Part shown: in pieces, positions 20,707-38,918 of the stretch
How the letters are laid out: every line of letters begins with the position of its first letter
Position numbering within the stretch: the stretch's first letter is position 1
Assembly (NCBI GenBank): GCA_049523315.1
Contig: JBEKMZ010000003.1
Coordinates: 14,510-78,509 of the forward strand
Length of the DNA stretch: 64,000 nucleotides
Direction of reading: 5' to 3'
DNA from: Acidimicrobiales bacterium
GTDB taxonomy: Bacteria > Actinomycetota > Acidimicrobiia > Acidimicrobiales > Bog-793
Position numbers and translations under genes: made by a program
Notes under the pieces: generated by a model
The model's database searches: none
Told to the model about the DNA's origin: nothing
Seen by the model: only the letters and a program-made list of their open reading frames with translations

Positions 20707-21162
20707 ATGCACATCTCAGCCAGAATCGAGTACGCGCTGCGGGCGTTGTGCACCTTGGCCGCCCGCGAGGGCGAGCCGCTCACAGCCGAGGAGCTTGCGG
20801 AGGCCCAGGGCCTTCCCGTCCGGTTCCTACGGGCCATCTTGAACGATCTCCGGCGGGTAGGGATCGTCACGAGCCAGCGTGGCAACGAAGGCGGGTACAA
20901 GCTGGCTCGCCCGGCGTCAGAGATCACAGTCGGAGACGTATTTCGCCGTCTAGAGGGGCCCCTCGCCGAAGTTCGCGGGATGCGGCCGGAGTCGGCCAGC
21001 TACGAGGACGCCGCGGTGCACCTGCAAAAGGTCTGGGTCGCGGTCCGGGCCTGCCTGAGAGGCGTGCTCGATGAGGTCACCCTCGAACAGGTCGTCTCCG
21101 GCAAGCTTCCAAGCCAGGTCGTGCGGCTCGTCCAGCGCCCGGGAGCGTGGGAGCCACACTGA
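20707..21162 (+). CDS. Rrf2 family transcriptional regulator
   Basis: MHISARIEYALRALCTLA...LPVRFLRAILNDLRRVGIVTSQRGNEGGYKLARP is the canonical Rrf2 wHTH. I see no obvious 3-Cys cluster ligand set. Confidence 0.9.
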   Translation: MHISARIEYALRALCTLAAREGEPLTAEELAEAQGLPVRFLRAILNDLRRVGIVTSQRGNEGGYKLARPASEITVGDVFRRLEGPLAEVRGMRPESASYEDAAVHLQKVWVAVRACLRGVLDEVTLEQVVSGKLPSQVVRLVQRPGAWEPH

Positions 21163-21207
21163 TCGCGCCGGTGCCCCCCTCTGTTGGGGCCGCGTTGGAA
21201 CTTCCGG

Positions 21208-21609
21208 TTAACTCCGGGGTCCGGTTACGATCCAGCCGCCGTCAACCGCGTAGGGCTGGATCGGGAATCCGAGAGCAAGCAGGAGGGGCCCGAGCGCTTC
21301 GTTGAGGATGTCCACCGACTCGAGCTGGCGGGCTGGAACGGACTCTCCAGGTTCCGGTGTGTCCCGGAGCTGCCAACGCACGACCACGGCCTCGCCACCA
21401 TCACGGTCCACCTGCACTGTCGACAGGTAGCAGCCCGCGACCGGTGGCCCGGACTGCCCGGGCGAACCGAGAGCCAGGCCTAACTCTGCGATCGCGGTCA
21501 GGAGGTCATCACGAAGACCCTCGACCCCGCCCGGTTCCTCGTCATCGGTTCCGGGCCACGCCGAGTTATCGACGTCCTCGAACGTCTCTTCCTCTGTCTC
21601 GTCGCTCAT
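21208..21609 (-). CDS. Hypothetical protein with acidic N-terminus
   Basis: 133-aa ORF of plausible composition (MSDETEEETFEDVD...). No family recognised. Confidence 0.45.
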   Translation of the reverse strand: MSDETEEETFEDVDNSAWPGTDDEEPGGVEGLRDDLLTAIAELGLALGSPGQSGPPVAGCYLSTVQVDRDGGEAVVVRWQLRDTPEPGESVPARQLESVDILNEALGPLLLALGFPIQPYAVDGGWIVTGPRS

Positions 21610-22509
21610 CGGTGCCTGATCATTCGGTGCCCTCGGTTGTCACGTCTTCTCGACGACGCCGCTCGCGCCGACATCTCGTGCCTGAATCCAGCGCAGGTCA
21701 CGGTACTGATGCTACGTGGCCTGAGGCGCCCCGCCGCGGATTACTTGCTCTGAGGCGCGCGGAAGGGTCCGGCGCGTTGCCAGACGAAGATCGTAGGGCA
21801 ACGAAAAGAGCCAATTCCCTGCCTTTGACGAGCTATCCCAGACCGCTGCAAACCTCCAACTCCGCCTCCGCCTGCCCGCAAGCGGCTCAGTTCGCTCAAG
21901 CCGTCTTGGCGCGCTGGGACACGCGCGGAGTCTTCCCTACGTCCGGTCGGGGCCATTTTCGTTCCCATGGCACATCCTCGTTCATACCCATGGCAAATCC
22001 TCGAAGCGTGATGGCAAGCAAGCGCACGCCAGCAGTTCCGAAACGATTGCTCGCGACGCCCAAGCATGCAACAAGGTCGCCGTGGACCTGTCTACAACCT
22101 GGCGACCGACATATCCGGGCACACGGATACCGGGAGCGTGCTACCCCTCAACCGAGTAGTCCGCCGAAGCGCGGCGAACGAGGTCCGAGCCCAGCCGGTG
22201 TCCCTCATCGAATCGGGTCAGCTGCACGTGAACGATCACCTGACCTCTGGAGCCGAGCTGTTGTTTGTTCGTCTGTTGGACGAGCTCCGGGAAACATTGA
22301 AAGAGCAGACTCCCGCCGTTTCGACCGTGTGCAACGGGCGGGCAGGTCGTCAATTGGCAGGGCCGCCTCGAATGCGAGGCCCGCATGGTCTGCTGCACCT
22401 ACGGGGCGCTCAGCTGATGATTCCCCCGCAGCGGGTCAGGCGTCCAGTACCGACAGAGCTAAAAGCCAGGGGACGAAGGTATGGAGGCGACTCAGCACTC
22501 TCAGGTGCT

Positions 22510-23970
22510 CTAGGACCCCGCACCGTGCGCGCTGCTGTGGGTGTAGCTCTCGCAGTAATCACCCGAGAACACGCTCAACTTGGCTCGCCGGAGATCAGCG
22601 ATTTGCACGAGCAAGAGTTTCTTCTGGCGCGGCTTCAGCCCGCCGGAGTGATCGAAACGCGACAGCTGCGCAGTTGTGTAGGCACTCGGGTCACAAACCA
22701 TGTGCTTCAGCACGATGTAGTAAGCGCGCCTTGCTGCCGCCGGCCTGGCTTGGTTGACATCGTTACTGACAGCGAACGCGCAAAGCGCAGTCGCGAAGAG
22801 GCATGGCAGCGCGAACAAGCCGGCCCGCCTCAACCCGAGGACGGATCCCCGCCGATCGCCCTCGCCGATCGTGAGCAGCCGGACCAGAATCAAGTAGATC
22901 CCTATCAGGGCGGGAAGGGTAAGTGCCACGTATCTGGAAGACATCGCCGTGTCGAGGCCGAGCGACAAACGGCTCACTCCGGTTGCGACCGCACCCATGA
23001 AGCTGAAGGCGATCAGCCCTAGCGCGACCTGAACGGCCCTGTCCTCGCGAAAGCGACGGTCGGCGATGAACACACCGGCGATGATCGCGACCACGACCAC
23101 TTCTGCGATCCCGAGCGCGCGAGCGGTCACGAGCTGGTCGCCGCTTCCGCCGAGCAAGCCGTTGCCCAGGCAACTCAAGGCGAACTCCACGACCTTGCTG
23201 AGGTGGTGCAGTGGGTGCCCGGCTGCCACCTTTTTGTCGCCGGAGAAGTACACGCCAAGAAAGGCAATGCCAATACCCGAAAAGACAAGCTTCTCGACAA
23301 GGCGAGAACGAGAGAGGGGAACCCAGAGGACCAACCCGCACGCGATCCAAGACAGGGTGCCTGACTCCCCGGTGAAGGAGGCAACGGCACAAACCAATAT
23401 CGCCAATGACACTATGTAGAGGCTCCTGCCACGACCGGACCGAAGCCTCACGACGAGAAGGATGGCCAAAAAGGCGAGGGCGACGGCGGCGAGATTCATC
23501 AGGTTCCACTCGTCGAGGAGATTCTGCCAATTGCTCCAGCAGAAAATGGCGAGGGCCACGGGATATGCGGCGATCAGAACGACGACGGCCCGAGCCCGTG
23601 GCAGGACCAGGCGGACTGCCCAAATGGCACATGCGGTCTCGAGCAGGCCTACAACGACCGACAGGAGCTTGAGCAGCTGAACATTAAGGCCGAAGTACTT
23701 CGCGTCGAGCAGCAGTCCGAATCGCTCGAGGACAGGTCTGCCGTCTCCGTAGAACCGGGTTATATGGCCCCAATTTATGCTGCCCGTGGTTGTGAACTTG
23801 ACGATGATTCCGACGTAGCCCCACGTGTCAGAAATCGGAATGTTCGCGCTCGATCTCAGGATGAAAAGAGCTTCGGCAACTGGAAGTGCCAGATACGCCA
23901 GGATCACCGGGCCGAGGGCGACATGCGAGGGCCAGGAGCGAACCGTGCGCTTGTGTCTCGGCCGAGTCAT
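22510..23970 (-). CDS. Polytopic membrane protein (10 or more TM; GT-C / polymerase-like architecture), function unknown
   Basis: Long hydrophobic ORF directly downstream of, and co-directional with, the cysteine desulfurase. The ATG at 23970 follows a basic stretch. It looks visibly less GC-rich than its neighbours. Confidence 0.6.
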   Translation of the reverse strand: MTRPRHKRTVRSWPSHVALGPVILAYLALPVAEALFILRSSANIPISDTWGYVGIIVKFTTTGSINWGHITRFYGDGRPVLERFGLLLDAKYFGLNVQLLKLLSVVVGLLETACAIWAVRLVLPRARAVVVLIAAYPVALAIFCWSNWQNLLDEWNLMNLAAVALAFLAILLVVRLRSGRGRSLYIVSLAILVCAVASFTGESGTLSWIACGLVLWVPLSRSRLVEKLVFSGIGIAFLGVYFSGDKKVAAGHPLHHLSKVVEFALSCLGNGLLGGSGDQLVTARALGIAEVVVVAIIAGVFIADRRFREDRAVQVALGLIAFSFMGAVATGVSRLSLGLDTAMSSRYVALTLPALIGIYLILVRLLTIGEGDRRGSVLGLRRAGLFALPCLFATALCAFAVSNDVNQARPAAARRAYYIVLKHMVCDPSAYTTAQLSRFDHSGGLKPRQKKLLLVQIADLRRAKLSVFSGDYCESYTHSSAHGAGS

Positions 23971-24117
23971 GCGCTTGCCGAAAGTAGCAGACCCGATCCG
24001 AACGGCACTTGCATCTTCGGCAACGTGCCGGCGGTGGGGTGTCAACGGTGATCTAAAGCTTTTCTTATGTCGGCGCGCCGGGCTTGCCGGCAAGCCTGGC
24101 ACATCTGAACCGTGCCG

Positions 24118-25878
24118 TTACCGGCGGCTGCCGGCGTCCCCGGCCAAGCTGCGTAGCGCCGCCACCAGCAGATCGACCTCGACGTAGGTGTTGTACATCG
24201 CCAGAGAGGGCCGCACGGCCGACTCGAGGCCGTAGCGGCGGAGTATCGGCTGGGCGCAGTGGTGACCGGCCCGGACAGCTATCGCTTCCTGGTCCAGCGC
24301 CGAGCCGACCTCCTCGGGGCGGTAGCCCTCCAGTACGAAGGTGAGGACACTGGCTTTCTCAGGCGCCGTGCCGATGAGGCGAAGGCCGGGAACACTGCGG
24401 ATCTCTGCCATCGCGTAATGGAGCAGGTCGTGCTCGTAGCGCTCGATGATCGGCCGCCCGAGGCGGTCCAGGTACTCGAGCGCAGCCCCGAGGCCGACGG
24501 CACCGGCGATGTTGCCCGTGCCCGCCTCGAATTTGGCTGGTGGACGCTGGTACAGCGTCCGCTCGAAAGTAACGTCGGAGATCATGTTCCCGCCGCCCTG
24601 CCACGGCGGCATCTCCTCGAGAAGCTCCGCTTTGGCATACAACGCCCCGATGCCGGTGGGGGCGAAGATCTTGTGCCCAGAGAACACGTAGAAGTCGGCG
24701 TCCATCGCCTGGACGTCGACGACCATATGGGCCACTGCTTGCGCCCCGTCCACGAGCACCTTGGCCCCGACGCGGTGAGCCGTCTCGATCATCTCTTTGA
24801 CCGGAACGATCGTGCCGAGGACGTTGGAGACCTGGGCGATCGCGACGAGCTTGGTCCGCTCGCTCAGCAGGTCGCCGTAGGCGCCGAGGAGCAGGCTACC
24901 CTCCTCGTCGACGGGGATGACCTTCAGCTTGGCTCCGGTCTCGGCGGCGAGCTGCTGCCAGGGGACGATGTTGGCGTGGTGCTCGAGGTGCGAGACCACG
25001 ATCTCGTCTTCCCTGCCGATGTGCCGGCGTCCCCAGGACTGCGCCACCAGGTTGATCGCCTCGGTCGTGCCGCGCGTGAACACGACCTCTTCGGCCGATG
25101 GCGCGCCGAGAAATTTCGCCACCGTGGAGCGAGCCCCCTCGTAGGCGTCCGAGGATCGCGCCGCGAGGCTGTGAGCCGAGCGGTGGATATTCGAGTTCTC
25201 GTGCGAGTAGAAGTACGCCAGGCGGTCGATGACCACCTGCGGCTTTTGAGTCGTGGCCCCGTTGTCCAGCCAGACCAGCTGGCGCCCGTGGATACGCTCT
25301 GTCAACACCGGGAAGTCGCGACGTACCGCCTCTACATCGAAGGCCGGGTAGGCGTCCACCCGCCCTACCATGCGCGGGTCGCAGGCCGGTGTCCGGGCGG
25401 GACTGGCCTTGCGCTCCTCGATGAAATAGAACGACGGCGCACCAGCCGGGCTGGAACCGAGCACGGGCTTTGAGCGCTCTAGCTGGCCCGAGCCCTCGAT
25501 GCCCGCGATTGCTGCCGCCGCCGCAGCCGACAACCCCGGGATGGAACCAGCTGCGGGCTGAGCCGCAAGCGACGCCAGCCTCGCCGGAGCGGCTGCGGCC
25601 CTGTGGAAGCTCGACAACGCGTCGGGTGGTTGGTAGCCGGGCAGGTCGACCGCCCGGCGATAATCGGACACCACGGCCGTTGAGGCGTGAACGGCCGGAT
25701 CCGCGGCCTTATCTGGCGCGGACTCTTTTCCCGGCTGATCTGCCGGGGCTGCGGCGTCCGGCTTGTGCCCCGGCGTCGAGGCGAAGAACTCGCTCGCGAT
25801 CCTTGTCAGGGTCGCCTCGTCCGGCACCCAGTCTGGAACGGTGCCCGCGCCGTCACCGGTAGGAGTGCGAGTACTCAT
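24118..25878 (-). CDS. Class V aminotransferase-fold cysteine desulfurase (SufS/CsdA-like) with ~180-aa disordered N-terminal encapsulin cargo-loading domain
   Basis: The ATG at 25878 overlaps the shell gene's 3' end by 26 nt. The Ala/Pro-rich N-terminus contains LTRIASEFF, cf. the conserved LARLANEFF-type motif of Family 2A cargo. The catalytic part carries SGHKIFAPTGIGALY (PLP Lys) and RAGHHCAQP (catalytic Cys). Confidence 0.9.
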   Translation of the reverse strand: MSTRTPTGDGAGTVPDWVPDEATLTRIASEFFASTPGHKPDAAAPADQPGKESAPDKAADPAVHASTAVVSDYRRAVDLPGYQPPDALSSFHRAAAAPARLASLAAQPAAGSIPGLSAAAAAAIAGIEGSGQLERSKPVLGSSPAGAPSFYFIEERKASPARTPACDPRMVGRVDAYPAFDVEAVRRDFPVLTERIHGRQLVWLDNGATTQKPQVVIDRLAYFYSHENSNIHRSAHSLAARSSDAYEGARSTVAKFLGAPSAEEVVFTRGTTEAINLVAQSWGRRHIGREDEIVVSHLEHHANIVPWQQLAAETGAKLKVIPVDEEGSLLLGAYGDLLSERTKLVAIAQVSNVLGTIVPVKEMIETAHRVGAKVLVDGAQAVAHMVVDVQAMDADFYVFSGHKIFAPTGIGALYAKAELLEEMPPWQGGGNMISDVTFERTLYQRPPAKFEAGTGNIAGAVGLGAALEYLDRLGRPIIERYEHDLLHYAMAEIRSVPGLRLIGTAPEKASVLTFVLEGYRPEEVGSALDQEAIAVRAGHHCAQPILRRYGLESAVRPSLAMYNTYVEVDLLVAALRSLAGDAGSRR

Positions 25879-26794
25879 GGAACTTGCCGATTTCGACGTC
25901 GTCGAGGACTGCAAGCGCGTCGGGAGTGAGGACGGCGAGCGAGTAATAGAGAGAGACGAGGTAGGACGCGATTGCGTTGCGGCTGATCCCCATGAATCGC
26001 ACTGAAAGCCCGGGTGACTGCTCGCCTGTGAGGCCTGGCTGGTAAAGGCCAATTACACCCTGGCGTCGCTCACCGACGCGCAGCAGGAGCACCTTGGTCT
26101 TGCCCTTGACGATCGGCACCTTGTCGGAGGGGACGATCGGAAGGCCGCGCCAAGTGATGAACTGCGAGCCGTGGATGCTCACGGTCGCTGGCGGGACTCC
26201 GCGGCGCGTGCACTCGCGACCGAAGGCGGCGACGGCGAGCGGGTGGGCCAGGAAGAAGGCCGGCTCCTTCCAGACCTTTGTGATGAGCTCGTCGAGATCG
26301 TCCGGCGTCGGCGGCCCCGTCAAGGTGGAGATGCGCTGGGATGCGTCAGCGGCGGAGAGCATTCCGTAGTCGGCATTGTTGATGAGCTCGCTCTCCTGGC
26401 GCTCCTTTACGGTCTCGATCGTCAGCCTGATCTGCTCCGCGATCTGGTCGAAAGGGCTGCTGTAGAGATCGGAGATGCGGGTGTGGATGTCGACGATCGT
26501 CGCCACGGTGCTGAGGAAGTACTCGCGCGGCGTCTCGTAGTAGCCGACGTAGGTCGTCGGCAGCTCCGACTCGTCTCGCGCCGGAGTGGCGACGGTGACC
26601 GAGCCAGGGTCCTTGACCCGGTTCAGACGGTAGATACCCGCCTCGACCGGCACCCACTGCAGCATGTGGACCAGCCATCGCGGAGTGATCGTGTCGAGCT
26701 GTGCGGTGCTCTTGGTGGCATTCGTGAGTTGGCGCGCGGCGTCGTCGGTCAGCGCGAGATTTGTCGGCTCTTCGTTGGTCACTGCTCTAGGCAT
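25853..26794 (-). CDS. Family 2A encapsulin shell protein (SrpI-like, HK97 fold, no cNMP domain)
   Basis: Strong recollected similarity along the whole length to SrpI-type shells: ITPRWLVHMLQWVPVEAGIYRLNRVKD, DIHTRISDLYSSPFDQI, ERQESELINN, KEPAFFLAHPLAVAAFGRECTRRGVPPATV and LLLRVGERRQGVIGLYQP. At 313 aa it is the 2A type. Confidence 0.9.
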   Translation of the reverse strand: MPRAVTNEEPTNLALTDDAARQLTNATKSTAQLDTITPRWLVHMLQWVPVEAGIYRLNRVKDPGSVTVATPARDESELPTTYVGYYETPREYFLSTVATIVDIHTRISDLYSSPFDQIAEQIRLTIETVKERQESELINNADYGMLSAADASQRISTLTGPPTPDDLDELITKVWKEPAFFLAHPLAVAAFGRECTRRGVPPATVSIHGSQFITWRGLPIVPSDKVPIVKGKTKVLLLRVGERRQGVIGLYQPGLTGEQSPGLSVRFMGISRNAIASYLVSLYYSLAVLTPDALAVLDDVEIGKFHEYSHSYR

Positions 26795-26879
26795 TGCTCA
26801 GCCCTTCCCTGATCGACTGCCCGAACGGCTCGGTTTCCGGGAGCGTCCGGGACGTCAGATCGCCTCTCGATGGTGGCTC

Positions 26880-26945
26880 ATTCGTCACTATTTTTATAAA
26901 CTTAGCTCACCGGTAATAGGGTCCAAGGTCACTAATTTGAGGTCG
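26880..26945 (-). promoter_or_regulatory. AT-rich promoter/operator island upstream of the encapsulin gene
   Basis: The only AT-rich patch in the 26795-26971 gap. GTCACTA(T/A)TT occurs twice (26884 and 26928), 44 nt apart, flanking TTTTTATAAACTTAG. Confidence 0.35.
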
Positions 26946-26971
26946 TCGAGCCCACTCGCGTTGCCGTCAGA

Positions 26972-27502
26972 TCAGATGAAGAGCTGGATATCGGCCTTCG
27001 CGGCCATGTCGATGAAGCTGGCCGCACCGAGTGTGGGCTGCAGACCGTCGATGAAATCGGACGTCGACAGCCCGTAGAGGTCCATCGTCATCTGGCAGGG
27101 GTGCAGGCGCACGCCCACGTCGATCGCCATCTCCATCAGCTCGGTCACGCTCGCGACCTTGTGCTGCTTGGCGAGCAACTTGATCATCGAGGTCCCCATC
27201 CCGGCGAAGTGCACCTTGCTCAACTTCAAGTGCTCGCTCCCGCCGCGGTCGAACAGGGACTCTCCCTTCTGCATCCAGTTGTTGCCCGTCACGCGCTTGT
27301 CGTTCTTCTGCAGTACCCGCAGGCCCCAGAAGGTAAAAAAGACGTCGACCTCGAGGCCGGACGCGGCCCCAGTGGTGGCGAGGATCATCACCGGCCACAC
27401 CCGGTCGAGGTCGTTGCTCCAGCAGATGATGGCCATCCGCTTCGGTTCCTCCTCCTCGGAAGCCTTGGTAGAAGCGCTCAATGATGTGTCGGTGCTGTCC
27501 AT
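26972..27502 (-). CDS. DsrE/DsrF-like (COG2210-type) sulfur-carrier family protein
   Basis: MAIICWSNDLDRVWPVMILATTGAASGLEVDVFFTFWGL... and the conserved Cys context RLHPCQMTMD. Acidic Ser/Glu-rich N-terminal tail. AT-rich gaps flank it on both sides. Confidence 0.8.
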   Translation of the reverse strand: MDSTDTSLSASTKASEEEEPKRMAIICWSNDLDRVWPVMILATTGAASGLEVDVFFTFWGLRVLQKNDKRVTGNNWMQKGESLFDRGGSEHLKLSKVHFAGMGTSMIKLLAKQHKVASVTELMEMAIDVGVRLHPCQMTMDLYGLSTSDFIDGLQPTLGAASFIDMAAKADIQLFI

Positions 27503-27589
27503 GTCGGATCTCCTGACTCGGCGACGATGCCCTGGTCAGTTTGCCCCGCGTAGGGTGCTGCGATTAGGGCTGGTGAACGGGATCGGCGA

Positions 27590-27640
27590 TATCCAAATAC
27601 TACTTTCCAGCTAGATTACATAGTTAATACCTAGAGACCA
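27590..27640. promoter_or_regulatory. AT-rich island between lbpA and the dsrE-like gene (promoter/operator candidate)
   Basis: AAATACTACTTTCCAGCTAGATTACATAGTTAATACCTAG was read directly. It contains GATTAC-N5-TAATAC, similar to a motif upstream of cysK. Confidence 0.3.
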
Positions 27641-27701
27641 CGAGTTCCATGGTGGGATCGCCCTTCACAGAGCACACGCGGAGCCTCGGGAGCTCGTTCG
27701 A

Positions 27702-28136
27702 CTATCCGCACGTGATGCCCTCGGCGTCGAGGAACTGGCGGTACGCCTCGATACCCTCAGGCCCGGTGACGAGGTCGGCCGCATCGCCTGCCCAGTCGGA
27801 TGGACGTAGCCGCGCGACCCAGCCGGCCCCGTAGGGGTCCGAGTTCACGAGGCTCGGCGAGGCGAGAAGGGCATCGTTCACCTCGACGATCTCGCCGCTT
27901 ATGGGCGCCGTGACAGGGCCCACCCATTTGCCGCTCTCCACGGTGGCGATGTTCCGGCCCTTTTGGACGAGCTTGCCAGCCGCCTTCGGCGTAACGGCCA
28001 CGATCGTCTTTGCGAGGCTCTGGGCAACGTCGGTCATGCCGACCGTGACGAGTTCCCCGTCACGGCGGGCCCAGACGTGCCTTCCCACTATGTAGTACAG
28101 CTCCTCGGGAAGGTTGCACTTGTTGACGACGGTCAT
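27702..28136 (-). CDS. GcvH-like lipoate-binding protein (LbpA type)
   Basis: ATG at 28136. The glycine-cleavage-H fold pattern is VGMTDVAQSL...ATVESGKWVGPVTAPISGEIVEVN...DPYGAGW, with the lipoyl-Lys in VESGKW. Confidence 0.85.
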   Translation of the reverse strand: MTVVNKCNLPEELYYIVGRHVWARRDGELVTVGMTDVAQSLAKTIVAVTPKAAGKLVQKGRNIATVESGKWVGPVTAPISGEIVEVNDALLASPSLVNSDPYGAGWVARLRPSDWAGDAADLVTGPEGIEAYRQFLDAEGITCG

Positions 28137-28191
28137 GTTCTCTCCTTCAGCGCGACTTGCGGGCCGACGTGTCTCTCGCGTCTTCGCCGCA

Positions 28192-30354
28192 TCACACTGT
28201 GACCCCGACACTGGGCGGCCCGACCGGCCGATAGAGTGCCTCCCCGATGAGCGAGACGATGTCGCGCACGGCGATCCGGTTCTCGGCGCGGGTCGTCTTG
28301 ACCGCCTCGGAGAACATGACCAGGTCCTTGGGGCAGGCCACGACGAATCGTCCCACGTCCAAAGAAAGGGCCTCCTTTATCCGTATCTCACTCGGGCGCT
28401 CGGAGAGGTAGCTGTCGTCCATCCAGATTCGCCCTCCACCTGCGCCGCAACAGAACGTGTCCGTGCGGTTGCGGGGCAGCTCGACGAGCTCGCAGCCGAG
28501 TGACTGCAGGATCCGGCGAGGGGCGTCGACCACGCCGTTGTAGCGCGCCAGGTAGCACGGGTCGTGATAGGTGACCCGATACCCGAGCGGCCGCACCGCG
28601 ATCTCACCGGTCTCCAACAGGCTCGCGAGCAGCTCGGTGTAGTGCCGGACCGGGTAACTAGCCCCGAGCGACGGGTACTCGTTGCGAAACGCGTTGAGTG
28701 TGTGCGGGTCGGTCGTGAAGATCTCCTCGAAATGGGCCCCGGCCAGGGCCTCGAGGTTCTGCTGGGCGAGCATCTCGAACAAACCTTCCTCGCCGACGCG
28801 CCGGACATCGTTGCCCGAATTGCGCTCCGCCTCGTAGAGGAGGCCGAAGTTGACCCCGGCATCGTGCAGGATCCTCGCCAGGAGACGGCTGGTCTCGCCC
28901 AGCCGCTCGTCGAAGCTGGCGTAGTCGCCCACGAACCACAGATACCTCACGGGCTGCTTTCGGACATCGGGGATCTGGAACTCAAGCTCACGCGTCCAGC
29001 GTCCACGTGTCCGGGCCGACTTCCCGAAGGAATTCCCCTGCGCGGCCAGGTTCTGCAGCGCCTGTTGCAAGGTGTGGTCGAGATTCCCCTCGTTGACCAG
29101 GCTCCGTCGCAGCTGGATGATCGTGGGCACCTGTTCCACCCCGACAGGGCAGACGTCCACGCAGTGCATGCACGTCGTGCAAGACCACAAAGCCCCGGCC
29201 TCGATCACCTCGCCGGCGATCCTTACGCCCTTGGCGGGCGAGAGCGGACCACTGCGCTGCGGCCTTTGCTCGCGATCGAGCAGGGTCGTCCCTCCGGCCG
29301 AGGTGTCAACCCACTGGCGCAGGTCGAGGATCAGGTCGCGCGGCGACAGTGGCGCCCCGCCGGCACGTGCCGGGCAGACGTCGTGGCAGCGGCCACACTT
29401 CGTGCACGCGTCGAGGTCCAAGAGCTCTTTCCAGGTGAAGTCCGAAATCTCCTCGTAGCCGGGGTGCTTCGGTGCTGGCGCAGCCAGCCGGAGCGTCGCC
29501 GAACGGTCCGTCGCGACCAGGTTCACCCCGTCGAGCAGCATGTGCATCGCCTTGGAGTACGGGACATAAGCGACAAAACTCAGCGCGAGCACGACGTGGA
29601 TCCACCACATGACGGTGTGGGCCCTTATCGCCTGCGCGGACGTCATGCCAAGGCCGGAGAATATCTCCGCGACCGACCGGCCGAAGGGGCTGAACACCGT
29701 GAACCAGGCCATGTGCTGGCCGAGAATGCGCAGTCCAGTCAACAGGTAGGCAGTCACGAGGATGGCCCCGAGCAGCCCCAGGAACATCCAGTCGCCCTCG
29801 ACCATGGCTCTTCTCGAATAGCCGCCCGTGGGCGTGCCTGCCCGGTCGTAGGACAGCCGCTCTGGCTTGAGCATGCCCCTGCGCACCGCCATATAAGCCA
29901 GGGCGACGAGGAACGCGAAGCCCATGGTGTCGACAGCGAAGGTGTAGACGATGAAGAACGTGCCGTGGAAGAAACTGTCCTCGTGCCCGGCGACCAAGCG
30001 TGAAGCTGTCCGGACGACGTCGGTGTCGACCGTGAGGATCACCGTCGCCATGAAAGCGACGAGGAACCCCCAGAGCATGAAAAAGTGCGCGACGCCGGTG
30101 CCCCGGTTCGCTCTCGTGACCGTCGTGCCCTTGGCGATCGAGCGCAGTCGGCTGGCGAGCGCCGCCCGGATCGTCGGTCCTCGACCCGCCGCCCGGCCGA
30201 GCCTGTACTTGCGCACGCGCCGCCAGACACCCCATGCGAACACCGCCGTCGACAGCGTCGCCAGGCAGTAGAAGATCGCCTTGCCCACAGATCCGATTCC
30301 CTCGAACAAGGGCCGGCTCACGTCGGTCGCCAGCAGACCGAGCGAGCCTGTCAC
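28192..30354 (-). CDS. Membrane-bound HdrD/DsrMK-like Fe-S oxidoreductase, ETF:(mena)quinone oxidoreductase type (Emo / EtfD-like)
   Basis: N-terminal ~300 aa with 5-6 TM helices (NarI/DsrM-like). Two ferredoxin Cys clusters (CTKCGRCHDVCP, CTTCMHCVDVCP) and two CCG domains (HDPCYLARY, FCCGAGGG). Starts 2 nt after etfA. Confidence 0.85.
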   Translation of the reverse strand: MTGSLGLLATDVSRPLFEGIGSVGKAIFYCLATLSTAVFAWGVWRRVRKYRLGRAAGRGPTIRAALASRLRSIAKGTTVTRANRGTGVAHFFMLWGFLVAFMATVILTVDTDVVRTASRLVAGHEDSFFHGTFFIVYTFAVDTMGFAFLVALAYMAVRRGMLKPERLSYDRAGTPTGGYSRRAMVEGDWMFLGLLGAILVTAYLLTGLRILGQHMAWFTVFSPFGRSVAEIFSGLGMTSAQAIRAHTVMWWIHVVLALSFVAYVPYSKAMHMLLDGVNLVATDRSATLRLAAPAPKHPGYEEISDFTWKELLDLDACTKCGRCHDVCPARAGGAPLSPRDLILDLRQWVDTSAGGTTLLDREQRPQRSGPLSPAKGVRIAGEVIEAGALWSCTTCMHCVDVCPVGVEQVPTIIQLRRSLVNEGNLDHTLQQALQNLAAQGNSFGKSARTRGRWTRELEFQIPDVRKQPVRYLWFVGDYASFDERLGETSRLLARILHDAGVNFGLLYEAERNSGNDVRRVGEEGLFEMLAQQNLEALAGAHFEEIFTTDPHTLNAFRNEYPSLGASYPVRHYTELLASLLETGEIAVRPLGYRVTYHDPCYLARYNGVVDAPRRILQSLGCELVELPRNRTDTFCCGAGGGRIWMDDSYLSERPSEIRIKEALSLDVGRFVVACPKDLVMFSEAVKTTRAENRIAVRDIVSLIGEALYRPVGPPSVGVTV

Positions 30355-30356
30355 GC

Positions 30357-31319
30357 TCAGCCCCTGATCCGGTCCACGAGCTCGGGGACGAGATCGAACA
30401 GGTCGACGGATGTCCCGTAGTGGGCGACACCGAAAATTGGGGCCGCGGGATCGGTGTTGCAGGCGATGATCAGCTCCGCGCTACGCATGCCTTCGAGGTG
30501 TTCCGGGGCTCCCGAGATCCCGAGAGCGAGGTAAACCCTCGGCTTAACCTTCACGCCCGACTGCCCCACGTGGCGAGTCTTCGGCAGCCACCCCGCGTCC
30601 ACCACAGGGCGCGAAGCCGAGAGCGGGACGCCGAGGGCATCCGCGAGCTCGAGCACGATCTCGAGGTTGTCCTGCGACTCGATGCCTCGTCCTACCGAGA
30701 CGAGCATCTCGGCCGAGGTGATGTCCACATCTCCCTCAGTCGCTTCGATCACCCGGCGTAGTGACATCCGCAGGGTATCGAGGCCGGGCGATGGAGCTAG
30801 CCCCATGAACTCTGTCGTGACTGCCTTCGGGTCGGTCGATGTGGCGCAGGCGCCGCCCATGACGGTGGCGATCACGCGCTCGCCCGCAAGTTCGACGTCG
30901 GCGAGAACCTTCCCGCCCAGCATCTGTGCAGTGGCCACGATGGCACCGTCTTCGACCCAGAGATCACTCACGTAAGCCGCCAACGACGCATTCCAGTGCA
31001 CCGCGAGCGCCGCCCCGAGATCCAGGCCCACGGTCGCGTTCGACATGAGCAAGAGACGCGGGGACCGCTCTGCCAGCACCTCCAAGAGCTCGTGCTCGTA
31101 AGCCTCCGGGATGTACTGCGACAAGACAGGGTGTTCGACGCAGACCACGACGTCGGCACCGCCGAGTTGATCGGCGAGCTCTCGCGCTCCGAGCAGCACG
31201 ACCTCGGTCGTCCCACCGAGCGCCAATGCGAGCTCACGCGCCTTGCCGATGAGCTCGTAGGTCCCGTCGGAGACTTGCGCTCCCGTGTGCTCGGCGAGAA
31301 CCATGACGTTGTCGCTCAC
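30357..31319 (-). CDS. etfA: Electron transfer flavoprotein alpha subunit
   Basis: C-terminal FAD-binding signature PRVYLALGISGAPEHLEGMRSAELIIACNTDPAAPIF. Confidence 0.9.
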   Translation of the reverse strand: MSDNVMVLAEHTGAQVSDGTYELIGKARELALALGGTTEVVLLGARELADQLGGADVVVCVEHPVLSQYIPEAYEHELLEVLAERSPRLLLMSNATVGLDLGAALAVHWNASLAAYVSDLWVEDGAIVATAQMLGGKVLADVELAGERVIATVMGGACATSTDPKAVTTEFMGLAPSPGLDTLRMSLRRVIEATEGDVDITSAEMLVSVGRGIESQDNLEIVLELADALGVPLSASRPVVDAGWLPKTRHVGQSGVKVKPRVYLALGISGAPEHLEGMRSAELIIACNTDPAAPIFGVAHYGTSVDLFDLVPELVDRIRG

Positions 31320-31326
31320 TTGATGG

Positions 31327-32118
31327 TCACCCTTTCACCAGGCCACGTGTGCGAAGCATTCCCACGATCTGCTCGGCCACTTCCCCGGCACTGCCGGCGA
31401 GCATCTCGGCCTGACCCGTCCTCTCGGGTAGGTGCAAGCGGCGCACGAGCACCTCGGTTCCCGCCGATGCCACTGGTGAGACGGCCCTCTCCTCGATGGA
31501 GCCGGACTGCATGGCCTGTTTGATCCGACTGATCGGGGCGTAGCGCGGGACCTGGCGAGCGGACTGGACACCGATCACTGCAGGCATCTGCACCTCCAGC
31601 TCGTGTGACCGCCCGGCCGCGAACTCCTGTCGGACAATTATCGAGCCGCCCTCGGCCTCGATGCTCACGACCACCGACACGTGTGGGAGGCCAACGAGCG
31701 CGGCCAGCCTGGAGGGCAGCTGGCCGTCGGGGTCGTCACAGGCCTGCACGCCGGTGATCACCAGGTCGGCCGGCTCGGTCGCCAGGTATCCCGCCAGAAG
31801 GCGTGCCCGCTCGGACAGTTTGATTCCCGCTCGGAGCGGTTCTTTCCCGCTCGCGTCGGCGAGCTTGACCGCCGTGTCCGCTCCCTTGGCGAGCGCGGTG
31901 TAGAGGATCTGGTCGACCTCGGGGTCCGCGGCCATTCCGAGCGCGACCACCTCGGCCCCGTTCGCGTCCTTGATCAGCAGGGCCTCTTCGAGAGCCTGCG
32001 CGTCCCACTCGTTGACCACGAAGCTCAGATACTCCCGGTCGATCCCGGCCCCGTCCGCGGTTAGCTCGATCTCCTCCACGAGATCTGGCACCGCCTTCAT
32101 AGGCACCACGATTCGCAC
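31327..32118 (-). CDS. etfB: Electron transfer flavoprotein beta subunit
   Basis: MRIVVPMKAVPDLVEEIEL...NEWDAQALEEALLIKD is typical of EtfB/FixA. Confidence 0.9.
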   Translation of the reverse strand: MRIVVPMKAVPDLVEEIELTADGAGIDREYLSFVVNEWDAQALEEALLIKDANGAEVVALGMAADPEVDQILYTALAKGADTAVKLADASGKEPLRAGIKLSERARLLAGYLATEPADLVITGVQACDDPDGQLPSRLAALVGLPHVSVVVSIEAEGGSIIVRQEFAAGRSHELEVQMPAVIGVQSARQVPRYAPISRIKQAMQSGSIEERAVSPVASAGTEVLVRRLHLPERTGQAEMLAGSAGEVAEQIVGMLRTRGLVKG

Positions 32119-32119
32119 C

Positions 32120-33226
32120 TCAGCTCACCTCTCTACGCTCTTGTTTGACGAGATCGCCCAACCGCAGCTGCTCGCGGATCTCCTCGAGATCGCTCTCGGT
32201 GGGCGCAAACGGATAGTCACGGAAGGCCTCCGTGGGCCGGTACGACCCGTACGGCCTCGTGCAGCCCGGTGAGTGATCTTCGCCCGGGCAGCCGTTTGTC
32301 ATGAACGCCGTCGCGTCCGTGACGACTGCCTCGAGGGCGCCGTGGGGCGCCCGGACACACGCGATCCCGCCTTGCTCGTCGAAGCCGAAGCTCCCCAGCT
32401 CGTAGCCTTCGGTCTCGATCAGATGCCTGGCGAGCTGCAGCCTGCGCCACCGGCGCAGAGGCGGCTTCGGCTGTGACGCCATGCGCGAGCCCGGCTCCGG
32501 ATTGAAACAGAAAAGGTAGGAAAAGACCTCCCGGTCCCGCAGCTGGACGAACAAGGAGACCAGGTCGCGATCGGTCTCACCGAGACCCACGAGGGTGTGC
32601 ACGTTGACCTTCCAGGGCCCGAAGATCTCCCGGGCGTCGGTCACGATCTCCCAGTACTTGTCCCACCTGAGCCCGCCAGCGGGGACGTCTGTGCGGGTGC
32701 TCGCGAATAGTTCCTCGGTTACGGCATCGAGTCCGACGCCGATCATGTCGACGCCAATCGACTTGAACTCTTCGAGCCCCCGTCGTTTGAGCGTCGGCGG
32801 CGCAACGAGGATCGATATCGGCGTCCCGACGCGCGCAGCGATCCAGCGGGTGATGTCGCAGGTGTCGCGGTACGCCCGGCCGTGGGTGACCATCGAGATG
32901 CAGACCCGCGTGAGGGCCGGCTCGAAACGCGCCATGCGCTCTACGAGCTCATCGGTGCGCACAAGCGGCCACTCGACCCTGATGAACGACTTGTCCTCGT
33001 AGTTGCCCGGGCGGCTCCGGGCGAGCCCGCAGTAGCCGCAGCCCGAGCGGCACCCCTCATCGTAATTCAGAAGGATGTTGATGCCACCGAACTCGAAGTC
33101 TCGACCGAACCGGCCCGAGCGCATCCGCAGTGCGATAGCGCTCGCCATGGAAACTCTTACGTACTCCGGGCTGGTTCGTGTCACGGCGAGCGCTGACGGC
33201 GTGAATGGGACTTGGCGGACGGCCAC
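32120..33226 (-). CDS. Radical SAM protein, LipS1/LipS2-type (biotin/lipoyl synthase-like sulfur insertion)
   Basis: CRSGCGYCG (CX3CX2C) cluster motif and a TIM-barrel-like length. It is embedded between lipoate ligase and etf genes. I cannot say from sequence alone which LipS paralogue it is. Confidence 0.75.
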   Translation of the reverse strand: MAVRQVPFTPSALAVTRTSPEYVRVSMASAIALRMRSGRFGRDFEFGGINILLNYDEGCRSGCGYCGLARSRPGNYEDKSFIRVEWPLVRTDELVERMARFEPALTRVCISMVTHGRAYRDTCDITRWIAARVGTPISILVAPPTLKRRGLEEFKSIGVDMIGVGLDAVTEELFASTRTDVPAGGLRWDKYWEIVTDAREIFGPWKVNVHTLVGLGETDRDLVSLFVQLRDREVFSYLFCFNPEPGSRMASQPKPPLRRWRRLQLARHLIETEGYELGSFGFDEQGGIACVRAPHGALEAVVTDATAFMTNGCPGEDHSPGCTRPYGSYRPTEAFRDYPFAPTESDLEEIREQLRLGDLVKQERREVS

Positions 33227-33319
33227 GTCGCCTGCCCTTAGCTCGGATCGGTGGGCGCGGGTGCGCCCGGAGCGACCGGCGCTCCGACGAAGGAAGCGGA
33301 GCCCGCGGCCCGAACCGGC

Positions 33320-34384
33320 TCAGGCATCGGAACCTCGCGAGCTTGCGCCCGCCTCAATGATGATCTCGACGAGCTGCGCGGCGCTGACGCCGAGCGCGTC
33401 GGCCGCACCCGAGCGGGCAACCACGTCAAGGACAGAGGCGTGATCGAGGCGCCGCCAGCGCAGTCCCGACTCCATGGCCGCCATTTCGGGCGGCAGCTCG
33501 TTGAAGTCCCCGACCACCATCGCGCTCTTCACGAGCCCGCAGTGGGTGGCGAGATAGATCCTGGCAAGCCCGGCCGGCGTCTTCAACATCGCCGAGCCGC
33601 TGGCGTCGTCGGCAACGCTCCGCTCGTCGAGCCAGGACTGTGACCCGTAACGGCTGATGGCGAGGGCATTCGCGAGGGCCTCCTCCTCGGCGTCTACAAG
33701 GGCGGGGTCGAGATCCACTTCGAAGCCCGATTCGAAGCCCTTCGCGATGAAGGGTCGAATCCTCGCCGCGTCCCAGACGGAGCCCGTCTCGGCGGACACC
33801 GTCGTGATGCGCTCGCTCACGGCTGCAACGGCCCTATCGGCCAGCTTGGCTGCTGGTATCCGTAGCACCTCAAGCATGAGCCCGACGTCCAGGTGGGCGA
33901 GAACGCTCGCGTGGAAGATCATCGCTCCGGCCTCGTCGACATACAGGCCCAGCCCGGCGATCTTGCGACCGGCGACCTCGAGGTCGTTCTTGCCATGAAA
34001 GCTCGCCGTGATGCCGAGTTCGGCGAGACCTGCTACAAGCCCGTTCGCGAGCGCCGCGATGGTCTCCCGGGGGCGCTCACCAGCACGACACCTGTCCAGG
34101 TACGCGACGCCCAGCTGTCCGGCGCCCATCACGATGGCGCCGCCGCCGGTCAAGCGTCGGCTGACTTGCGTGTCGGTGCGGCGGCAAGCGGCGAGATCGA
34201 CCTCGGCGTTCAGGTTCTGGTATCGGCCGATCAGCGCGCAGTGGTCCCGATAGCTATACAGCCGGAGCGTCGGCGCGCTCTTCTGTGCCTCGTGGCGATA
34301 ACGGGCCATGAGGGCCTCGTCGAGGGCAAGGCCCTCCGCGGCGCCGACACCGTCATCGGCCAAGAGCCGCCATGCTCCGCTCAC
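33320..34384 (-). CDS. Lipoate-protein ligase family protein (LplA-like, copy 1)
   Basis: BPL/LplA/LipB catalytic pattern: LRLYSYRDHCALIGRYQN, SRRLTGGGAIVMG, AGRKIAGLG. The GTG start overlaps the upstream stop (GTGA). Confidence 0.85.
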   Translation of the reverse strand: MSGAWRLLADDGVGAAEGLALDEALMARYRHEAQKSAPTLRLYSYRDHCALIGRYQNLNAEVDLAACRRTDTQVSRRLTGGGAIVMGAGQLGVAYLDRCRAGERPRETIAALANGLVAGLAELGITASFHGKNDLEVAGRKIAGLGLYVDEAGAMIFHASVLAHLDVGLMLEVLRIPAAKLADRAVAAVSERITTVSAETGSVWDAARIRPFIAKGFESGFEVDLDPALVDAEEEALANALAISRYGSQSWLDERSVADDASGSAMLKTPAGLARIYLATHCGLVKSAMVVGDFNELPPEMAAMESGLRWRRLDHASVLDVVARSGAADALGVSAAQLVEIIIEAGASSRGSDA

Positions 34385-35361
34385 GATCCCACCTTCACCG
34401 CGTTGAAGCGGCTCTCGGATTCCCCGCTCCAGGTGAGAGAACAGCAGTACTCGAAGAGCCTCGGCGTCAGACCGCGCGACCTCGCGTACTCGATGGCGCC
34501 CTCGGCCGGATAGGCGATGCCGTTCAGGCCCAGGTCGATGGCGGCCTCGTCGAGCTCGCGCTTTTGGGCGCCGAGCGGGCGTGCACAGCCGAGGTTGATG
34601 CTGGTCGAGGGAACTGCGAGGCGAGCGGTAGCAAAGAAGTCCGTGACCTGGTCGACCGGCGGCGGTGCCAGATGCTCCATCGGCGTGCCGACGAGCGGCA
34701 CGAGCACCACCAGGATCAGGGTCGACACCTGGTACTGGGTAAGCATCTCCAGCGCTCGATGCTCGCCCAGAAACTGGCCATAATGCAGCCCGAGCACGAT
34801 GTGGGGCAAGATCCGCAGCCCATGGTCGGAGAGGAGCTGCAGGGACCGGCCCACGTCGACGACGGTGAGGTCCAGGTGGTAGACGTCGCGCAGCGTCTCG
34901 TCAGCCCCTACGACATCGAGCATGACACCGTCGACGCCCGATGCCGCCAAACCCTCGGCGAGCTCTGGTGAGACGAGGCCCGAATGAACGATGACCTTCA
35001 TTCCGAGCTCTTCACGAATCCGCGGGACGTGGCGCAGATGTCCCAACAGCGGCACCGCTCCGTAGCGTGTCGAGCCGCCGGAGACGAGTATCCCCTCGCT
35101 TCCCTGCTCACGGAGCTGTGCCGCGAGATCGAACAGGTCGCTGCCCGCCCTTACCGAGACCATGCCGCCCAGCACCTTGGCCTGACAGTGGTCGCAACAA
35201 AGCGCGCACGCCCTGCCCGTGACCGACACCGCCAAGAAACGGCGCGAGCTCGCGGGGACCCACTCAGAGGTCTGCCAGCGCTTAAGGCCCGGGGCGTAGA
35301 AGTCCATCACGTCGGGGAAATTCGACCGCCGCAGCGCGCTGGGCGATGCCGCCGTCGTCAT
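34381..35361 (-). CDS. Radical SAM protein, LipS1/LipS2-type (second paralogue)
   Basis: Cys cluster VTGRACALCCDHCQ. 326 aa with GG-rich SAM-binding stretches (ILVSGGS). Sandwiched between a GcvH-like gene and a ligase gene. Confidence 0.7.
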   Translation of the reverse strand: MTTAASPSALRRSNFPDVMDFYAPGLKRWQTSEWVPASSRRFLAVSVTGRACALCCDHCQAKVLGGMVSVRAGSDLFDLAAQLREQGSEGILVSGGSTRYGAVPLLGHLRHVPRIREELGMKVIVHSGLVSPELAEGLAASGVDGVMLDVVGADETLRDVYHLDLTVVDVGRSLQLLSDHGLRILPHIVLGLHYGQFLGEHRALEMLTQYQVSTLILVVLVPLVGTPMEHLAPPPVDQVTDFFATARLAVPSTSINLGCARPLGAQKRELDEAAIDLGLNGIAYPAEGAIEYARSRGLTPRLFEYCCSLTWSGESESRFNAVKVGS

Positions 35362-35822
35362 TCGGCGATGATCCCGCGAAGGCGGTAGCCGGCGATCTTG
35401 GCGGCGAACCAGGCGGTCACCTCAGCAGGGTCGCTGAGCAGCCCATCAAGTTGAGCGCCTTCCGAGCTCACGCTCGCCTCGATCAACCAGCCCTCGCCGT
35501 ACGGGTCCCGCTCGGCCAGGCCCGCGTCGAGTGCCACCGCCTCATTCACGGCTTCCAGCGCACCGGAGACCGGGCTCAAGAGCGGGCCGACGAACTTGGC
35601 GGCTTCGAGCTGACCGAACGGCCGGCCCGCGCTGAGATTGGTCCCTATCGCGAGGAAGGACAGCTGTGCCAAGGTGCCACTCGTCTCGATGCCGAGCGGG
35701 TCCATGCCGATCCTCACCCGACCCGACCCGCTCACGAGCACCCACATGTGCGACTCTGGCTCATAGCACCTGTCGAGTGCGAGCGGGAAGCCTTCCACCA
35801 AGATGAGCTCAGCCTCTCCCAT
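35358..35822 (-). CDS. GcvH-like lipoate-binding protein (LbpA type, second copy)
   Basis: HMWVLVSGSGRVRIGMDPLG...GQLEAAKFVGPLLSPVSGALEAVN...DPYGEGW. The lipoyl-Lys lies in LEAAKF. Confidence 0.8.
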   Translation of the reverse strand: MGEAELILVEGFPLALDRCYEPESHMWVLVSGSGRVRIGMDPLGIETSGTLAQLSFLAIGTNLSAGRPFGQLEAAKFVGPLLSPVSGALEAVNEAVALDAGLAERDPYGEGWLIEASVSSEGAQLDGLLSDPAEVTAWFAAKIAGYRLRGIIAE

Positions 35823-36850
35823 CAGAGCCTCCCTGGATCTGCGGCCGCGAAGACTGCGGCCACGCGGCGAGCCGGCTCACCGAAGCCGGCTAGCACTTCT
35901 GCGGCAGAGCGCAAAGGGACCCCGGTGAGGGCGTCCTCGACATGTCGGATCGATCCATTGAGTCCCGGGTCGTGCAGCCGCACCTTGTCGAGCGTTCCCC
36001 GGACGACGCTGGCGCTGACACTCGCACTCTTCCAGGCCGCGGCGAACGTCCAGACCCCGGCGCGCACCTTCACTTGTCGCGCTCTCGGAGCGGCGTCGCC
36101 TGCCGAAGACGGCCGGTTCGGGCCCGCAAGCCATTCCTCCGCCTCGAACGTCTCGTCAAGCTCGGCGAGAGTCGTCTCCTCGCTGACGGTCAACTTTCCA
36201 GCGCCGGGGACGAGGCCTAGTGCGGAGCCGTACGCGCTCGTCAACCCAGCCTGGAAAACGGCCGGATCAACCGGGGTCGCATTGACGAAACGGCGCATCA
36301 GCGCCAGCGTCTGATCGCGCTGGTTCCGATCGGCGAGGGCTAGCACCCTAGTCGCCCGGTCATGGTCGAACCGCTCGATCAAGTTCCCGCACACCACGAC
36401 CGCGTCTTCGATCTGACCTGCTCCGTGCCCGCAGATCTTGGCCTCTCCGACGCAGATCTCCATCTCCTCGTCGAGCACAGCTGGCACCCCGGCCGATCGA
36501 AAGGCCGTGACGGCCGGTTCGAGCAGCAAGCGCAGCGCCTCGCGCCGAGCCTGCGGCACGGCGCGAGCTGGCAGGCAAATCTGGAACAGAAGCTGGTCCC
36601 GGTCCAGATAGACCGGACCTCCGCCCACCATCCGACGCAAGATCGGCAGACCCTTCTTGCGGCAGTATTCGTGGTCCAGCTCTTCCACCTGGCGGTGGTA
36701 GCCGAGGCAAACGTACGGAGCCGCCGGGCGGGTGAACGACAGCGTCGCCGGAGCACCCGCCGAGACTCCGTGAGCTATCGCATGCCAAAGGGTCTGGGAG
36801 CGCAGCGGCGAGCAGCTGCCAGAATCGATGACGCGCAGCGGCTCAACCAT
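35822..36850 (-). CDS. Lipoate-protein ligase family protein (LplA-like, copy 2, divergent)
   Basis: YVCLGYHRQVEELDHEYCRKKGLPILRRMVGGGPVYLDRDQLLFQI and GEAKICGHGAGQI follow the LplA catalytic-domain pattern. A ~120-aa C-terminal accessory domain is present. Confidence 0.75.
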   Translation of the reverse strand: MVEPLRVIDSGSCSPLRSQTLWHAIAHGVSAGAPATLSFTRPAAPYVCLGYHRQVEELDHEYCRKKGLPILRRMVGGGPVYLDRDQLLFQICLPARAVPQARREALRLLLEPAVTAFRSAGVPAVLDEEMEICVGEAKICGHGAGQIEDAVVVCGNLIERFDHDRATRVLALADRNQRDQTLALMRRFVNATPVDPAVFQAGLTSAYGSALGLVPGAGKLTVSEETTLAELDETFEAEEWLAGPNRPSSAGDAAPRARQVKVRAGVWTFAAAWKSASVSASVVRGTLDKVRLHDPGLNGSIRHVEDALTGVPLRSAAEVLAGFGEPARRVAAVFAAADPGRL

Positions 36851-38150: not shown

Positions 38151-38153
38151 GGC

Positions 38154-38906
38154 CTAGGCCTCCGGCCCTTGAACGCCGAGCAGGCGGCGGACGATGTCGG
38201 GCAGCGACGGGATGACCCGGGTGAACTCGCGGGTCACACGCATCTGCAGGATCGTGTGCATGTACACCCCGTACACAACGGCCATGAGGACATCCATCCC
38301 GAACAAGCCAGCACCAGCGACGGAGAACCCGGCCGCCCTACAGGTCTCCTCGGCAAAGGCCGTCGCCCGACCGACGCTCATGTAGACCGCACCCCTCGTG
38401 GCTCCCGGGCTGCGCTCGAGTTCACAGTTGGTCAAAAGGCCTAGCGCCCCGGTTCCCGCGCCAGGGTCCCAGATCCACCTGGTCCATAACCAGTAACGCG
38501 CGGGCTGGGTGAAGTGCAGCAGCTCTGCTGGGAGATCGATCCCGGCGCCTGATAGCTCGCCTATTGAGCCGTCACCGCCGAGCGTGGCGTCGAAAAGGTC
38601 GATCCGCTCCGCCACCGGCGCGCCTGCATCGAGGAGCCGAGCGATCGCCCCTGCAAGTCGCTCGGGTCCGACAGCATCGACGATCCGGTCCGCGCGCCTT
38701 CGAGTTGCGAATACCCAACGCAGCACTTCGCGCAGCTCGGCGCGATCGAGCTGCGACGGGTCGTCTGACAAGAGCCCGCGAAGCGAAGCGGCCTTGCGCT
38801 GCAGGCCGGCAGTGATCACCAGCAGGTCGCTCTCGCCGATTCGGTCCATCGCCTCGCGTTGGAGATCCAGCGCGGTCGGGCTGGCGACAACGGGACCGGT
38901 GACCAC
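38154..38906 (-). CDS. Conserved hypothetical protein in the sHdrH position
   Basis: 250-aa soluble ORF between the hdrA-like and HdrD-like genes, which is where shdr clusters carry 'hyp/sHdrH'. I have no motif I can name, so the assignment is positional only. Confidence 0.5.
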   Translation of the reverse strand: MVTGPVVASPTALDLQREAMDRIGESDLLVITAGLQRKAASLRGLLSDDPSQLDRAELREVLRWVFATRRRADRIVDAVGPERLAGAIARLLDAGAPVAERIDLFDATLGGDGSIGELSGAGIDLPAELLHFTQPARYWLWTRWIWDPGAGTGALGLLTNCELERSPGATRGAVYMSVGRATAFAEETCRAAGFSVAGAGLFGMDVLMAVVYGVYMHTILQMRVTREFTRVIPSLPDIVRRLLGVQGPEA

Positions 38907-38918
38907 GAGATCGTCGCC

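Follow-up and report, generated by a model that had tools for sequence, protein, structure and literature searches.

The window analysed here, a stretch of 64,000 nt from an Acidimicrobiales bacterium (contig JBEKMZ010000003.1), contains an overlapping gene pair that encodes the shell protein of a Family 2A encapsulin (enc) and a cysteine desulfurase, CyD (gene cyd), with the features of an encapsulin cargo. Upstream of the pair on the same strand lie a block of genes for sHdr-LbpA sulfur oxidation and, beyond it, the cysteine-synthesis genes cysK and cysE (Table 1). We consider it very probable that the pair is a standard Family 2A desulfurase encapsulin, and that it constitutes the distal half of a canonical operon that has been split by insertion of the sHdr block.

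Table 1. Features of the encapsulin locus and its surroundings, in positions of the window
Feature	Position	Strand	Details and basis
Family 2A encapsulin shell gene (enc)	25853-26794	minus	313 aa; open reading frame map
Encapsulin cargo cysteine desulfurase CyD (cyd)	24118-25878	minus	586 aa; NF041166, TIGR01979, 8KG1
Disordered N-terminal cargo-loading domain, residues 1-185	25324-25878	minus	composition and alignment
LTRIASEFF, LARLANEFF-type loading motif, residues 24-32	25783-25809	minus	alignment
PSFYFIEE, AASPYYFLDG-type second motif, residues 148-155	25414-25437	minus	alignment
SGHK with pyridoxal phosphate-binding Lys403	24670-24681	minus	aligns with 8KG1, 4W91
HHCAQP with persulfide-forming Cys541	24247-24264	minus	aligns with 8KG1, 4W91
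Out-of-frame overlap of shell 3′ end and cargo start, 26 nt	25853-25878	minus	open reading frame map, related loci
cysK	43383-44321	minus	cysteine-synthesis half of canonical 2A operon
cysE	42679-43380	minus	cysteine-synthesis half of canonical 2A operon
Type II sHdr-LbpA module, ~16 kb, between cysE and enc	26972-42650	minus	domain matches, synteny
Module order from tusA		minus	tusA, dsrE3, shdrC1, B1, A, H, B3, lpl, lbpA2, lipS1
Module order after lipS1		minus	slpl(AB), lipS2, etfB, etfA, emo, lbpA1, dsrE2B-like, then enc
AT-rich spacer upstream of enc, 177 nt	26795-26971	minus	composition, scans
Membrane protein, 530 aa, ~10 transmembrane helices	22510-24102	minus	hydropathy; variable third gene
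Rrf2-family regulator	20707-21162	plus	CymR-like, 83 bits, below cut-off

The shell protein scores 510.2 bits against the NCBIfam model encap_f2a (NF041162; cut-off 380), with all profile positions covered (1–295/295), and its single Pfam family is the SrpI-like PF19307 (346 bits). In a search of the PDB, residues 7–313 align without gaps to the shell of Acinetobacter baumannii (8T6R; E 7e-152), and further matches are SrpI of Synechococcus elongatus (6X8M), which is 69% identical to the window's shell, and the mycobacterial Mmp1 structures 8WOL, 8WON and 9KSL. The full-length matches to encap_f2a and 8T6R agree with an earlier note on this DNA, which had described the protein as an SrpI-type 2A shell without a cNMP-binding insertion. 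The second part of that description holds as well, since no Pfam match to the cNMP_binding domain was obtained in the 313-residue shell, and the Family 2B model aligns with its C-terminal half alone (model positions 212–449). Among 20 shell homologues from several phyla, the mean column identity is 83%. Homology to the solved shells points to an HK97-type fold with the Family 2 N-terminal arm, and at about 70–75% identity to shells that are known to assemble, the protein would be expected to form a T=1 icosahedron of about 24 nm. A Shine-Dalgarno-like sequence, GGGAAGGG, is located 7 nt 5′ of the shell ATG.

As for the cargo, CyD matches the NCBIfam model f2_encap_cargo1 (NF041166) with 829.9 bits (cut-off 800) and the SufS model TIGR01979 with 552 bits, in line with the previous description of a SufS-type cargo. 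The profile hidden Markov model search proposed in the earlier note thus places both shell and cargo above curated cut-offs, and both genes would already be nameable by curated NCBI models. The desulfurase fold begins at about residue 175–180 in alignments with the PDB entries 8KG1 and 4W91. Residues 175–580 align with 8KG1, the Enc-CD cargo of Mycobacterium smegmatis, at E 5e-180, and the two share the segments GHK and GHHCAQP. Based on these alignments, the catalytic domain is assigned to type II (SufS-like), with the cofactor-binding lysine and the catalytic cysteine intact, as had been claimed; the same residues are present in the solved desulfurases. Inside a shell, CyD would convert cysteine to alanine, and the sulfur may be laid down as protected elemental sulfur or polysulfide. 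A second SufS is encoded elsewhere in the genome, on another contig (C16; 507 bits), so that CyD is an extra, dedicated copy.

The N-terminal region of CyD (residues 1–185, up to R-x-DFP) contains 22% Ala and 12% Pro, which matches the Ala/Pro-rich extension of about 180 residues noted earlier; the family medians are 206 residues, 18% Ala and 15% Pro. Neither the PDB nor Pfam gave a match to this region. When 56 homologous N-terminal domains are aligned, conservation is seen in the blocks MTTxTPT, GLPDEATLxRLAxEFFxALPG, FxLPG and PxFYFxD, and LTRIASEFF sits within the most conserved of them, GLPDEATLxRLAxEFFxALPG. The loading-domain motifs described by Nichols et al. are LARLANEFFS and AASPYYFLDG (PMC8049743). 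The proposal that LTRIASEFF is a 2A loading motif therefore stands, and the second published motif is also present. Deletion of the loading domain abolishes loading in Synechococcus (PMC8049743) and in M. smegmatis (PMC11659603), and single motifs are insufficient; in M. smegmatis, several are jointly needed (PMC11659603). The N-terminal truncation suggested in the earlier note has accordingly already been performed in homologues. By analogy, CyD would be captured inside the shell through several short motifs distributed over its disordered 185-residue domain.

The function of homologous desulfurase encapsulins has been shown experimentally (PMC8049743, PMC10836720, PMC11659603). In S. elongatus, the SrpI/CyD system on plasmid pANL (6X8M) resembles the present locus in its gene order, cysK-cysE(epsC)-shell-cyd, and in having an Rrf2 regulator nearby, and the N-terminal domain is needed for the cargo to be loaded (Nichols et al. 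2021, PMC8049743). Differences are that the S. elongatus loading domain is longer (225 residues), that its LARLANEFF-type motif is degenerate, that a downstream rhodanese is present, and that srpI ends 234 nt before cyd, compared with the 26-nt overlap in the window. The encapsulin of A. baumannii 118362 (8T6R) similarly has a desulfurase with a long disordered N-terminal domain carrying short motifs, as well as a serine O-acetyltransferase gene in the operon, and this desulfurase encapsulin stores crystalline elemental sulfur (Benisch et al. 2024, PMC10836720). The Acinetobacter operon is, however, arranged as Rhd-AT-Enc-CD, whereas the locus in the window has no rhodanese, has cysK before cysE, and carries 16 kb of sHdr genes between cysE and enc. 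The closest solved cargo is actinobacterial, and belongs to the M. smegmatis Mmp1/Enc-CD complex (8WOL, 8KG1; Tang et al. 2024, PMC11659603), where the disordered N-terminal domain is similar in size, with 155 residues as compared with 185 here. The genomic context of the mycobacterial loci differs, with no sHdr module reported.

The canonical order of the Family 2A operon, cysK-cysE-enc-cyd, is found on S. elongatus pANL (cysK-epsC-srpI-cyd) and in 40 or more of 80 related loci, and cysE lies directly 5′ of the shell gene in most of these 80. In the window, cysE is instead followed by tusA at a tight junction of about 28 nt, and the entire sHdr module intervenes before enc is reached. Domain-level matches, as distinct from sHdr-specific models, place HdrC, HdrB, HdrA, a hypothetical gene and an HdrC/B fusion (sHdrB3) in this order within 36843–42009, and EtfB, EtfA and a membrane HdrC/B-like EMO follow the sHdr block at 28192–32118. 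The module holds two LbpA genes, of which LbpA1 is LbpA/GcvH-like, two Lpl-like ligases, LipS1/LipS2, EtfAB and the membrane EMO, and its DsrE2B-like gene is similar to PDB entry 2QS7. TusA is encoded at 42411–42650, DsrE3 at 42018–42401 and the DsrE2B-like protein at 26972–27502. The type II sHdr-LbpA cluster has been defined by shdrC1B1AHB3 and etfAB in one syntenic cluster (Tanabe et al. 2024, PMC11094781). The defining gene set and its order are the same in the inserted block, and tusA, dsrE3, lbpA and lipoate-maturation genes are common to the two. On the basis of these domain assignments, the inserted block is a type II sHdr-LbpA cluster in the published sense (PMC11094781). The longest open reading frame for sHdrB1 (40022–41476) overlaps sHdrC1 (41275–42009) by about 200 nt, and the true start of sHdrB1 is probably further downstream.

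Four sHdr-bearing Acidimicrobiales genomes without encapsulin (G361, G036, G069 and G180) carry the same module, from tusA to the dsrE2-like gene, but there it is neither preceded by cysK-cysE nor followed by enc-cyd. In the window, the sHdr genes therefore form a discrete unit within an otherwise canonical encapsulin operon, and the dsrE2-like gene at the seam is part of this unit, because the four genomes have it at the module end. The possibility that this gene supplies a sulfur acceptor specific to the encapsulin, in place of the rhodanese, was rejected since genomes without encapsulin keep the gene at the end of the sHdr cluster. The arrangement is best explained by the entry of a self-contained type II sHdr-LbpA module into a cysK-cysE-enc-cyd operon in the ancestor of a clade of peat Acidimicrobiales. 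In the literature searched, no sHdr cluster is described beside an encapsulin, and no paper names both. That an sHdr module interrupts a canonical operon, with the pair as one of the resulting halves, was not mentioned in the earlier note.

The composite arrangement, cysK-cysE-sHdr-enc-cyd, occurs in six genomes, i.e., the window's own genome (G000), G402 (contig 44) and G403–G406. These represent one clade of peat Acidimicrobiales with shells that are 81–100% identical, and in the shell tree the shells of the composite genomes form one well-supported clade, with the loci L005 and L006 as its deepest branch. When 2A shells and sHdrA orthologues were counted in 401 genomes of the order, a true 2A shell was found in 4 and an sHdrA orthologue in 15, with co-occurrence in the window's genus only; 13 of the 15 sHdr-bearing genomes have no 2A encapsulin, and 2 of the 4 with a 2A shell have no sHdr. 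A sample of the phylum, also of 401 genomes, yielded just one further true 2A shell, too few for testing a wider linkage. The distribution across the samples therefore indicates that the linkage between enc and sHdr is clade-specific and not obligatory.

Two genomes, G401 and G402, have a second locus of the type cysK2-cysE′-enc-cyd that is without sHdr (L001, 1987–6005, and L002, 2720–6822) and in which cysE′ is truncated to about 80 residues. The cysK2 gene is only 79% identical at the nucleotide level to the main cysK of the same metagenome-assembled genome (MAG). In G402, the second locus is present together with the composite locus, which could stem from a genuine duplication or from a mixture of two strains in the MAG. 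In G401, the encapsulin and sHdr systems are on different contigs, with nothing encapsulin-like after dsrE2. The idea that L001 and L002 preserve the empty site of the ancestor was rejected: the trees nest these loci inside the composite clade, and their cysE is truncated. They look like a secondary copy from which the module has been lost.

With respect to the relation between the compartment and the module, the reading that we somewhat favour is a neutral or merely regulatory juxtaposition, in which sHdr entered the spacer between cysE and enc and was retained because both parts respond to sulfur status, although they have no metabolic pathway in common. The boundaries of the module are sharp and identical to those of free-standing sHdr clusters, and the linkage is confined to one clade, has been lost in G401, and is absent from the second enc-cyd locus of G401 and G402. 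It is less readily explained by mere juxtaposition that the insertion has kept the same orientation and the tight cysE-tusA junction, and that it persists through divergence to 81% identity in the shell and about 75% in CyD.

A functional coupling, by which the desulfurase encapsulin was recruited as a cytoplasmic sulfur store or entry point for sHdr-LbpA sulfur oxidation, seems to us rather doubtful. Along such a route, CysK and CysE would fix sulfide into cysteine, and encapsulated CyD would turn this into stored sulfane sulfur; a relay of TusA, DsrE3 and DsrE2B would then hand the sulfur on to LbpA and sHdr, which would oxidise it to sulfite, and the electrons would reach menaquinone via EtfAB and EMO. 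Consistent with coupling, all 21 genes of the composite locus are on one strand, with no terminator-like site in the gaps of the locus, including the dsrE2 and enc spacers, and the composite is retained in all six genomes, including the deepest branch. No SoxB (TIGR04486) or YeeE/SoxT-type transporter (PF04143) was found in the sHdr-bearing genome G000, which is 93% complete; another source of cytoplasmic sulfane sulfur would therefore be needed, although we regard this as weak evidence. How stored sulfur is remobilised is also an acknowledged open question (PMC10836720), to which coupling would offer an answer. The counts in the order sample speak against coupling, however, as does the seam gene, which is part of the sHdr module and is present also in genomes without encapsulin, and the situation in G401, where the systems are on separate contigs and nothing encapsulin-related is found past dsrE2. 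In addition, the AT-rich spacers upstream of dsrE2 (199 nt) and enc suggest separate promoters, and the proposed route costs one acetyl-CoA per sulfur atom.

Returning to the pair as a standard 2A desulfurase encapsulin, the overlap between its two genes is a family-wide property and not special to this window. The open cargo frame extends from 26052 to 24118 and has a single ATG, at 25878, 26 nt before the last base of the shell stop (position −26), exactly where an out-of-frame cargo start inside the shell gene had been reported. In a survey of 70 related loci with both genes, an ATG at exactly −26 was present in 62, across Actinomycetota and Pseudomonadota, and in 56 of these 62 the frame continues intact into the desulfurase domain. 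The ATG spans two codons of the conserved shell tail GK(F/Y)H(D/E)Y, those for His and for Asp/Glu. Among 80 loci surveyed for the His codon, this is CAT in 71, compared with 132 of 374 (35%) for other His codons in the same genes (odds ratio 14, Fisher p = 2e-19, uncorrected for relatedness). A cargo start elsewhere, at TTG 25914 (−62) or GTG 25827 (+25), which would reduce overlap and coupling to annotation artefacts, is improbable: a start-type codon exists at +25 in the window and in L001–L004, and in-frame ATGs occur at −47, −50 or −68 in some loci, with −68 used in the RefSeq annotation of Variovorax, but at +25 the family consensus has Leu in place of a start codon, and the ATG at −26 is both the only one in the window's open frame and kept against codon bias across phyla.

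The cargo ATG has no Shine-Dalgarno-like sequence in front of it in the window, and the same is true of 53 of 71 loci. The conservation of the ATG and the CAT bias support a real, selected start, and make coupling by termination and reinitiation plausible. Because the ATG at −26 is inside the shell gene and has no Shine-Dalgarno sequence of its own, translation of the cargo is probably coupled to that of the shell, and we infer that coupling could hold shell and cargo at a fixed ratio, as the earlier note suggested. The overlap is not required for loading, since Synechococcus loads its cargo despite the 234-nt gap between the genes. In the main papers that were checked, the word "overlap" appears in just one, once and in another context.

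The 177-nt spacer in front of enc may be the site of a promoter belonging to the pair. A promoter scan of the spacers gave nothing convincing, neither the dsrE2 nor the enc spacer folds better than shuffled sequence (z-score 0.17 for the enc spacer), and an Rfam search near the pair returned no riboswitch or other family. No operator-like repeat common to the upstream regions of cysK, dsrE2, enc and the Rrf2 gene was found. In L005 (9555–10000) and L006 (9503–10000), dsrE2 and enc are separated by about 450 nt instead of the 177 nt found here, and both loci have this longer spacer in conserved form.

Downstream of the pair, the gene for a membrane protein starts 16 nt past cyd, where the GC content is lower (0.60–0.62) and the AT skew is strong. 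The protein at 22510–24102 has no Pfam, NCBIfam or PDB match, and its gene is otherwise present in L003 and L004 only. The Rrf2-family regulator is 97–99% identical to its counterparts in these two loci, where the neighbouring proteins are 59–92% identical, and Rrf2 genes adjoin the 2A operon also on S. elongatus pANL and in L005, L051 and L101. Between the genes for the Rrf2 regulator and the membrane protein, about 1.3 kb (21163–22509) contains no convincing gene. At a greater distance, the window has a cobalamin riboswitch on the plus strand (57928–58063; 49.5 bits) and three tRNA genes (54846–55690).

Some observations detract from the assignment of the pair as a standard 2A desulfurase encapsulin. 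The CyD score exceeds the NF041166 cut-off by only 30 bits, and the aligned stretch covers profile positions 188–623, so that positions 1–187, which represent the loading domain, fall outside it. An AlphaFold2 model of the shell was uninformative (mean pLDDT 39), with a shallow alignment of 20 homologues at 72–91% identity, and was not used. The alternative cargo starts, TTG at −62 and GTG at +25, are present in the window. Furthermore, the enc leader of the window (26795–26900) is without some 45 nt that form a conserved block in five close relatives (L001–L004 and L109), where they include the palindrome-like CCGCATCTGCGG; expression could therefore differ. Finally, the organism is an uncultured MAG.

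The pair is of a kind already characterised in Synechococcus, Acinetobacter and Mycobacterium, and as such does not extend encapsulin biology; the complete sHdr gene set inside the encapsulin operon is its only unusual feature. For the family as a whole, an overlap that is held across phyla by a non-preferred His codon provides a concrete handle on how cargo stoichiometry may be set. For the peat Acidimicrobiales clade, the genes of the compartment adjoin a complete system for sulfane-sulfur relay and oxidation, and the clade is therefore a natural system for testing one exit route. Should functional coupling hold true, encapsulin-stored sulfur would for the first time have a defined exit route, and the compartment would be a protein-shell counterpart of sulfur globules.

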